30,932 nucleotides of DNA from a virus (lineage: Duplodnaviria; Heunggongvirae; Uroviricota; Caudoviricetes), in IMG/VR virus record IMGVR_UViG_2529293142_000025, positions 1-30,932 of that record; one strand, given 5' to 3'. The notes beneath the pieces were generated by a model. The model saw only the letters and a list, made by a program, of their open reading frames with translations, was not told the DNA's origin and did no database searches. Positions 13,801 through 13,954 of this stretch are shown here, piece after piece. The position numbers and the translations under genes were made by a program. Each line of letters starts with the position of its first letter. Positions within the stretch are counted from its first letter, which is position 1.

Positions 13801-13875
13801 TGGAGCGGGTAGCGGGAATCGAACCCGCATCATCAGCTTGGAAGGCTGAGGTAATAGCCATTATACGATACCCGC
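13801..13875 (-). tRNA. tRNA-Gly (anticodon UCC)
   Basis: 75 nt cloverleaf on minus strand: GCGGGTA acceptor stem, anticodon loop CUUCCAA, T-loop TTCGATT, 3-prime CCA; near-identical to host glyT as recalled. Confidence 0.85.
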
Positions 13876-13878
13876 ATA

Positions 13879-13954
13879 TGGTGCCGACTACCGGAATCGA
13901 ACTGGTGACCTACTGATTACAAGTCAGTTGCTCTACCTACTGAGCTAAGTCGGC
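13879..13954 (-). tRNA. tRNA-Thr (anticodon UGU)
   Basis: 76 nt cloverleaf on minus strand: GCCGACTTAGCTCAGTAGGTAGAGC..., anticodon loop CUUGUAA, T-loop TTCGATT, 3-prime CCA; resembles host thrU as recalled. Confidence 0.85.

Follow-up and report, generated by a model that had tools for sequence, protein, structure and literature searches.

A widely shared tRNA-Thr(UGU)/tRNA-Gly(UCC) pair between the antiterminator and lysis genes of a lambdoid Escherichia coli prophage

The two tRNA genes

The window, that is, the whole 30,932-nucleotide stretch of DNA that was analysed, contains exactly two tRNA genes called by ARAGORN, both on the minus strand (Table 1). Read on the coding strand, tRNA-Thr(UGU) (13954 to 13879) is followed by the spacer TAT (13878 to 13876) and tRNA-Gly(UCC) (13875 to 13801). 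Rfam family RF00005 recovers both genes with scores well over its gathering score of 29, and the two calls by ARAGORN and Rfam are far above chance. The first-pass annotation had placed such a pair at 13801–13954, leaving the strand unstated, and had described a 3-nt spacer, a likeness to host thrU and glyT and the absence of tyrU. Both programs agree on the pair, at the coordinates and with the anticodons given there, and both genes fold and score as tRNAs; the spacer can be read directly from the sequence, with Thr followed by TAT and then Gly, leaving no tyrU in between, and alignment to the K-12 genes yields 76 of 76 identical positions for thrU and 73 of 75 for glyT. The threonine gene is clearly different from thrT of K-12.

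The two differences between the glycine gene and glyT, C6 to T and G66 to A, concern both partners of a single acceptor-stem pair, and the pairing is kept. Among the related copies, this pair is C6:G66 in 57, U6:A66 in 40 and a wobble U6:G66 in two; the series C:G, U:G and U:A indicates selection for an intact helix. The identity elements of ThrRS are G1-C72, C2-G71, G35 and U36, and those of GlyRS are U73, G1-C72, C2-G71, G3-C70, C35 and C36. All of these positions are present in the alignments, and the sole change in the glycine gene, at acceptor pair 6, falls on a non-identity position. Judged by their sequences, the two tRNA genes are almost certainly functional. A 52-aa open reading frame on the plus strand (13758–13916) was rejected as a gene, being merely antisense to the tRNAs; the small open reading frames within 13100–14330 have no Pfam match and none of them looks coding.

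The host is identified as E. coli by the yebY flank, which matches that of strain TUM1880 at 100% identity and is found in all 5,426 complete E. coli genomes; the SdsR/RyeA pair lies at the right end of the window. Since this end is E. coli chromosome, the phage tRNAs duplicate genes of their own host species, in which the median number of thrU copies per genome is one.

Table 1. Features of the tRNA locus and of its surroundings in the window
Feature	Position	Strand	Evidence or remark
Lysis cassette: two holins and M15 endolysin	11417..12607	-	Pfam Phage_holin_8
TerB-like gene, 141 aa	12695-13120	-	same gene annotated by RefSeq in E. coli strain WAT
Intrinsic terminator facing the tRNA-strand terminator	13447-13470	+	
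Structured 3' trailer	13490..13800	-	folding
Intrinsic terminator with T-run, ends the trailer	13519->13501	-	terminator scan
Long near-perfect hairpin, 85 nt	about 13665->13582	-	135 nt past tRNA-Gly, ahead of the lysis genes
tRNA-Gly(UCC), encoded CCA, glyT-like, U6:A66 acceptor pair	13801..13875	-	ARAGORN; Rfam RF00005, 65.6 bits; 73/75 identical to glyT
Spacer TAT, 3 nt, between tRNA-Thr and tRNA-Gly	13876..13878	-	direct sequence reading
tRNA-Thr(UGU), encoded CCA	13879..13954	-	ARAGORN; Rfam RF00005, 73.8 bits; 76/76 identical to K-12 thrU
5' leader hairpin GGYTCYGARGG...CYYGARGARCC	13958..14010	-	covariation; ends 3 nt before tRNA-Thr
Predicted sigma-70-type promoter: TTGCGA (14045-14040), 16 nt, TATCAT (14023-14018)	14018..14045	-	
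TTTACA-N4-TTGAC motif in the AT-rich region	14071-14056	-	recurs across divergent families
AT-rich upstream region, 19% G+C	14056..14175	-	composition
Terminator-like hairpin	14225-14200	-	
ORF6N antirepressor-like gene	14929-14318	-	
c4-a1b1 / IsrK / C4 antisense RNA matches	15180-14982	-	
Promoter-like site of the immunity module	15203-15174	-	
Q-like antiterminator	15200..15754	-	Pfam DUF1133 E=3.8e-107, Phage_antitermQ E=6.8e-6
YbcO gene	16041-15751	-	
DUF1367 gene	16640-16041	-	
hok/sok-type locus	17199-17501		Rfam sok, 107 bits
RalR/RalA type I toxin-antitoxin	28354-28764		Rfam RalA, 219 bits
Integrase-like ORF	29122-30198		
Host sRNA pair SdsR/RyeA	30326-30470		directly beside the integrase end of the prophage

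Genomic setting in the prophage

The tRNA pair has a Q-like antiterminator gene upstream and the lysis genes downstream, all of them on the minus strand. The matching stretch of E. coli WAT is annotated in RefSeq as TerB, DUF3927, holin, holin and M15 peptidase. This arrangement prevails among the relatives of the locus: of the 60 related loci with enough sequence, 55 have same-strand lysis genes downstream, and a Q-type gene, belonging to one of several families and often preceded by RusA, is found a median of 371 nt upstream of tRNA-Thr. The same order of Q, tRNAs and lysis genes is seen in phages 683R6, JLK-2012 and PhiR47_1. The TerB-family gene between the tRNA cassette and the holins contains neither ACA nor GGA codons.

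The Q-like gene is separated from the tRNA cassette by a P1/Gifsy-type immunity module (14318–15203, minus strand). Among 132 related loci, the c4/ORF6N part is shared by 4–14, the Q region by about 30 and the region upstream of the tRNAs by 26–36; with so few loci sharing it, the c4/ORF6N module has probably been inserted between Q and the tRNA unit. The cassette itself is mosaic relative to its flanks. A good intrinsic terminator on the plus strand faces the predicted terminator on the tRNA strand, and no convincing plus-strand gene ending at it was found.

The host flank, with sdsR/ryeA and yebY, starts near 30200, next to the integrase-like gene, which suggests that the prophage is integrated beside sdsR–yebY. 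The idea that the tRNAs serve as the prophage attachment site was rejected, because the integrase gene and the junction with the chromosome, beside sdsR/ryeA–yebY, are 16 kb away from them.

Promoter, leader hairpin and trailer

In a consensus scan of the sequence, the predicted promoter of the cassette matches 9 of 12 positions, and four sites of this kind were found against 3.5 expected, which, taken alone, is chance level. A comparison of relatives is more informative: the geometry TTGNNN-16 nt-TANNNT occurs in 33 of the 34 distinct upstream sequences of the two-tRNA form, and it is this recurrence across families, not the match of a single sequence, that supports a promoter belonging to the cassette. 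The gap between the hexamers is 16 nt in 32 cases; the second hexamer is TATTAT, TAATAT or TATCAT and ends 6–8 nt before the leader hairpin, and the spacer sequences are unrelated among families. An AT-rich candidate promoter of the tRNAs' own had been proposed in the first-pass annotation, and this proposal is supported by the geometry across families; the flank has a G+C content of 19%. The TTTACA-N4-TTGAC motif in this flank is possibly an UP element or a regulator site.

In relatives that lack the c4/ORF6N insertion, the cassette promoter lies only 200–300 nt past the stop codon of Q. This is where the late promoter is expected, and the cassette promoter may be a separate one or the late promoter itself. 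Among isolated phages, the promoter and leader family of the window was found only in 683R6, so no well-studied phage can be used to place the late promoter.

The leader hairpin was aligned across 25 distinct families, with 94% of the cells paired and four pairs changed on both sides; the observed covariation score was reached by none of 500 shuffles. An unpaired G-A/A-G step is kept in nearly all families, and a U:A pair found in most relatives is replaced in the window by a compensated C:G. The hairpin may act in processing, stability or promoter control. A search of IMG/VR for the leader motif, made independently of the tRNAs, found tRNA-Thr directly after 84 of 86 sites; thus, the hairpin belongs to the tRNA unit. 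The other two sites (L004 2434–2494 and L078 7151–7209) are orphan second copies with no tRNA of their own, located about 600 nt upstream of an intact cassette, and may be the scars of a lost or duplicated one.

The 311-nt trailer downstream of tRNA-Gly folds with a z-score of −5.16, and none of 100 shuffles folds as well. The long hairpin within it is present in 62 of 131 related loci; seven of its 31 predicted pairs show compensatory changes. In the 373 E. coli genomes carrying this hairpin, RefSeq annotates over it either nothing or a 'hypothetical protein'. It is possibly an RNase III site or an element of the late leader. A search of Rfam with the leader and the trailer at permissive E-values returned chance miRNA-like matches and a sub-threshold match to CyaR over the terminator region, and assigned them to no family.

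Distribution and array types

The Thr-3 nt-Gly junction occurs in 877 of 5,426 complete E. coli genomes, or about one in six, as judged by full coverage of a 63-nt probe across Thr-TAT-Gly; in the remaining genomes, the match is confined to the thrU half. In IMG/VR, a pattern scan found the junction in at least 120 contigs, and among the 120 copies listed the spacer is TAT in 116, TAAT in three and TGT in one. In a collection with one genome per species, the junction is also present beyond E. coli, in Shigella flexneri (three copies), E. ruysiae, Citrobacter braakii and Enterobacter hormaechei.

The pair is also present, and annotated, in the records of five deposited phages. In 683R6, the order is Q, tRNAs and holin; in phi467, the pair comes directly after stxAB; and SerU-LTIIb has two cassettes upstream of the LT-IIb toxin genes (elt-II). 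The array is Asn-Thr-Gly after Q in JLK-2012 and Met(CAT)-Lys-Thr-Gly after Q in PhiR47_1. Annotations of the cassette thus already exist in RefSeq and GenBank for several phages and for E. coli genomes numbering in the hundreds. A literature search found no paper specifically on the Thr-Gly pair; only these annotations and the description of phage SfI (PMC3636060) bear on it.

The 131 related loci fall into two array types. In 73, Thr-Gly comes last in an array of four tRNAs, Ile-type(CAT)-Arg(TCT)/Lys(TTT)-Thr-Gly; in the other 58, the pair stands alone, as in the window. The contrast drawn in the first-pass annotation between this pair and the common ile/arg set is therefore misleading, as in those 73 loci Thr-Gly lies directly behind Ile(CAU)-Arg(UCU)/Lys(UUU); the window pair is nonetheless not identical to the ile/arg set, only the Thr-Gly half being present. 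A 63-nt megablast query across the Ile-Arg junction, which is too variant-specific to measure the spread of that set, gave 33 full matches in E. coli genomes. More than 170 copies keep both tRNA genes of the pair intact and show compensatory changes. Prophage L002, whose structural genes are about 96% identical to those of the window, has no tRNA genes at all, which indicates that the cassette is dispensable.

Seen against this distribution, the finding as it was first stated adds one more copy of a known cassette in a known tRNA slot of lambdoid phages. Its usefulness lies in the correction: instead of a host operon reshaped locally, the pair is a mobile unit that many genomes share, often in fusion with the Ile/Arg set.

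Variant tRNA copies

Several copies of the cassette depart from the usual anticodons. In SerU-LTIIb (L134 1122–1197), a thrU-type body carries a TCT (Arg) anticodon, together with A31G and changes in the D arm; in the IMG/VR contigs L067 and L108, a thrU-type body with A26G carries a TTT (Lys) anticodon. For E. coli E1316 (H68), RefSeq annotates 'tRNA-Lys | tRNA-Gly' at the junction, and this case is known from the annotation alone. TAT and tRNA-Gly still follow each anticodon-changed copy of the Thr body, and, on sequence grounds, this looks like anticodon switching within the cassette.

The second tRNA of the four-tRNA arrays (L003, L007 and about 55 other IMG/VR loci) is of the Arg(TCT) type, often with the loop CCTTTAA. 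ARAGORN calls such a loop Lys(ttt), a reading that would put C at the normally invariant U33; other copies of this second tRNA are called Phe(aaa) or left without a definite assignment by the program. The tRNA-Thr(UGU) of JLK-2012 (L137 2495–2570) and four IMG/VR copies have positions 42–43 changed without compensation at 27–28. The anticodon stem is thereby weakened beside the reported AriB cut site (40|41), which could matter for nuclease sensitivity. The leader hairpin, the trailer hairpin and the anticodon-switched copies may be of interest to researchers working on late-gene control or on defences that target tRNAs.

Codon usage

The codon ACA occurs 17.1 times per 1000 codons in the prophage and 5.4 times in K-12 (3.2-fold), the largest absolute excess of the 61 codons; GGA, at 13.1 versus 6.0 per 1000 (2.2-fold), has the fourth largest. 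The K-12 reference consists of only 42 annotated genes, highly expressed ones included, and the enrichment ratios are therefore somewhat inflated. The first-pass annotation had proposed looking for ACA and GGA enrichment in the late genes. The enrichment is real, but it is stronger in the early and accessory genes (ACA 22.4 and GGA 15.1 per 1000) than in the late genes (11.1 and 10.9, or 2.1-fold and 1.8-fold), and the gene of the major capsid protein avoids both codons, with one ACA and no GGA among its 313 codons. The integrase gene has 18 ACA and 7 GGA in 358 codons. AGA and AUA are among the six most over-represented codons of the prophage; by enrichment ratio AGA, AGG and AUA exceed ACA and GGA, and the prophage has no tRNA for these codons. 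AUA and AGA are the codons read by Ile(CAU) and Arg(UCU), the two extra tRNAs in the four-tRNA arrays of its relatives.

Origin of the cassette

The first-pass annotation had suggested the capture and reshaping of a fragment of the host thrU-tyrU-glyT-thrT operon. No similarity to this operon was found upstream of tRNA-Thr or downstream of tRNA-Gly, and, with homology ending at the tRNAs themselves, a recent capture was ruled out. In the host operon, thrU is followed by T and glyT is preceded by AT, which together give the TAT of the spacer, and this sequence fits a single clean deletion of tyrU; about one in 16 random 3-mers (~6%) would fit equally well, and one of the four possible splits matches. 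Most likely, the cassette goes back to thrU-tyrU-glyT DNA that was captured from the host long ago and lost tyrU. As the identical Thr-TAT-Gly unit is present in 877 of the 5,426 E. coli genomes and in many phages, the capture did not take place in this phage. The earlier suggestion thus does not stand as to an event in this phage; if there was a capture, it happened long ago, and what moves today is the assembled cassette.

Proposed role and alternative explanations

The locus is probably best explained as a self-contained mobile tRNA cassette, situated in the late-leader slot of a lambdoid prophage, that would boost the decoding of ACA and GGA. The excess of these codons and the median of one thrU per genome support the standard view that phage tRNAs top up scarce isoacceptors, and the most likely role of the pair is the supply of scarce tRNAs reading ACA and GGA. 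Against this role stand the enrichment of further rare codons, the weaker bias of the late genes, which need the most translation, the small K-12 reference set and the sister prophage that does without tRNAs. Transcription would start near 14011, at the foot of the leader hairpin, from the promoter TTGCGA-16-TATCAT, and the transcript would comprise the hairpin, tRNA-Thr(UGU), TAT, tRNA-Gly(UCC) and a structured trailer of ~280 nt, up to the terminator near 13500. By analogy with closely spaced tRNA operons of E. coli, RNase P would cut the 5' end of each tRNA, and 3' exonucleases would trim the 3-nt tail. This would add to thrU and glyT, each of which E. coli encodes by a single gene, and the resulting tRNAs would decode ACA/ACG and GGA/GGG; host genes seldom use these codons, and the prophage uses them two to three times as often. 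In this way the cassette may raise the decoding capacity for phage genes, with a possible benefit to the phage. If the promoter is constitutive, the same would happen in the lysogen, with the dosage of both genes doubled; for thrU, the doubling follows from its median of one copy per genome.

Expression in the lysogen might also be the main purpose of the cassette. It would then be a lysogenic-conversion 'moron', a constitutive unit mainly serving the host, which doubles two single-copy tRNAs for rare codons and helps to express AT-rich, horizontally acquired genes, including the toxin genes found in the same slot in some relatives. A conserved promoter and a terminator independent of the neighbouring genes, the mosaic relation of the cassette to its flanks, its position beside stx in phi467 and elt-II in SerU-LTIIb and the median of one thrU per genome are all consistent with this. 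However, the promoter may equally be the late promoter, with its transcript extended by Q, no toxin gene adjoins the tRNAs of the window, and a service to the host overlaps with the supply of scarce tRNAs to the phage rather than excluding it; as the main explanation it is unlikely. It is highly improbable, on the other hand, that the cassette is a passive passenger, a neutral remnant of host DNA picked up long ago, or only an attachment or recombination site. Its sequence is almost identical to that of the host genes and related prophages manage without it, but more than 170 copies keep both genes intact, with compensatory changes, the promoter and leader hairpin persist although the flanks have diverged widely, and the integrase gene and the junction beside sdsR/ryeA–yebY lie 16 kb away.

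A different set of explanations involves defence. The anticodon of the window tRNA-Thr is that of a tRNA cleaved by the PARIS defence nuclease AriB; tRNA-Thr(UGU) is a prime AriB target, and phage T5 escapes by means of variant tRNAs mutated near the cut (PMC12409363). An extra tRNA-Thr(UGU) could accordingly be thought to buffer the phage or the lysogen against tRNA-cleaving nucleases, and, suggestively, the tRNAs in the Q-to-lysis slot include the three anticodons of the PARIS target set, Asn(GUU), Thr(UGU) and Lys(UUU), with Asn-Thr in SfI, Asn-Thr-Gly in JLK-2012 and the Lys(UUU) type in the four-tRNA arrays. The window tRNA-Thr, however, is identical to host thrU throughout, including U36-A-A-U-C|A41, and has no T5-type substitutions at the cleavage site. 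A PARIS-resistant variant was thus rejected for the window copy, and this identity makes a role against PARIS unlikely for it. In addition, a genomic tRNA-Thr copy in T5Mos was reported to be insufficient to rescue infection (PMC12409363), and tRNA-Gly(UCC), which is no reported PARIS target, is always linked to Thr in the cassette. Counter-defence is therefore quite improbable as the function of the pair in the window. A broader reading, in which the cassette is a mobile RNA operon whose leader hairpin and 85-nt trailer hairpin have regulatory or processing roles of their own and whose tRNA bodies are re-targeted by anticodon switching, and in which tRNA-targeting defences have shaped the repertoire of the Q slot beyond codon usage, is distinctly unlikely; if it were true, the Q-slot set of Asn(GUU), Thr(UGU) and Lys(UUU) would mirror the targets of the PARIS nuclease.

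Comparison with known systems

The closest chromosomal counterpart of the cassette is the host thrU-tyrU-glyT-thrT-tufB operon, with an identical threonine and a near-identical glycine tRNA gene. It differs from the cassette in containing tyrU, thrT and a 116-nt spacer between tyrU and glyT, and its promoter and downstream flank have no homology to those of the window pair.

The ileZ-argN-argO set of phage 933W and related Stx phages consists of tRNAs for rare codons, located in the lambdoid late leader beside accessory or toxin genes. Its anticodons differ from those in the window, whereas the kind of tRNA, reading rare codons, and the location in the late leader are the same. The Thr-Gly half found in the window has its own predicted promoter and leader hairpin, and a set of the ileZ-argN-argO type is joined to it in the four-tRNA loci (73/131).

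Phage T4 supplies Thr(UGU), Gly(UCC), Arg(UCU) and an AUA-reading Ile tRNA. The lambdoid four-tRNA arrays have these same four specificities, and this suggests a common selective pressure. T4 is, however, a virulent phage, with tRNAs that have diverged from those of the host and a genomic setting different from that of the window cassette. Its tRNA-Thr(UGU) is documented in the study of AriB (PMC12409363). Phage T5 neutralises PARIS with variants of tRNA-Lys, tRNA-Thr and tRNA-Asn. The window tRNA-Thr has the anticodon of a proven AriB target, Thr(UGU), and none of the substitutions that the T5 tRNAs have in or close to the 40|41 cleavage site.

As to position, the nearest parallels are lambdoid and P22-like phages with tRNA genes downstream of Q, namely SfI, Sf6, ST64T and phage 21; in SfI, a tRNA-Thr(UGU) is found there, and a bias towards ACA codons has been offered as the reason (PMC3636060). 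The tRNAs of all four occupy the same Q-to-lysis slot as the window pair. JLK-2012 has the same 3-nt Thr-Gly junction preceded by Asn, which the window lacks, and its tRNA-Thr differs at about 10 positions, while that of the window is the same as host thrU.
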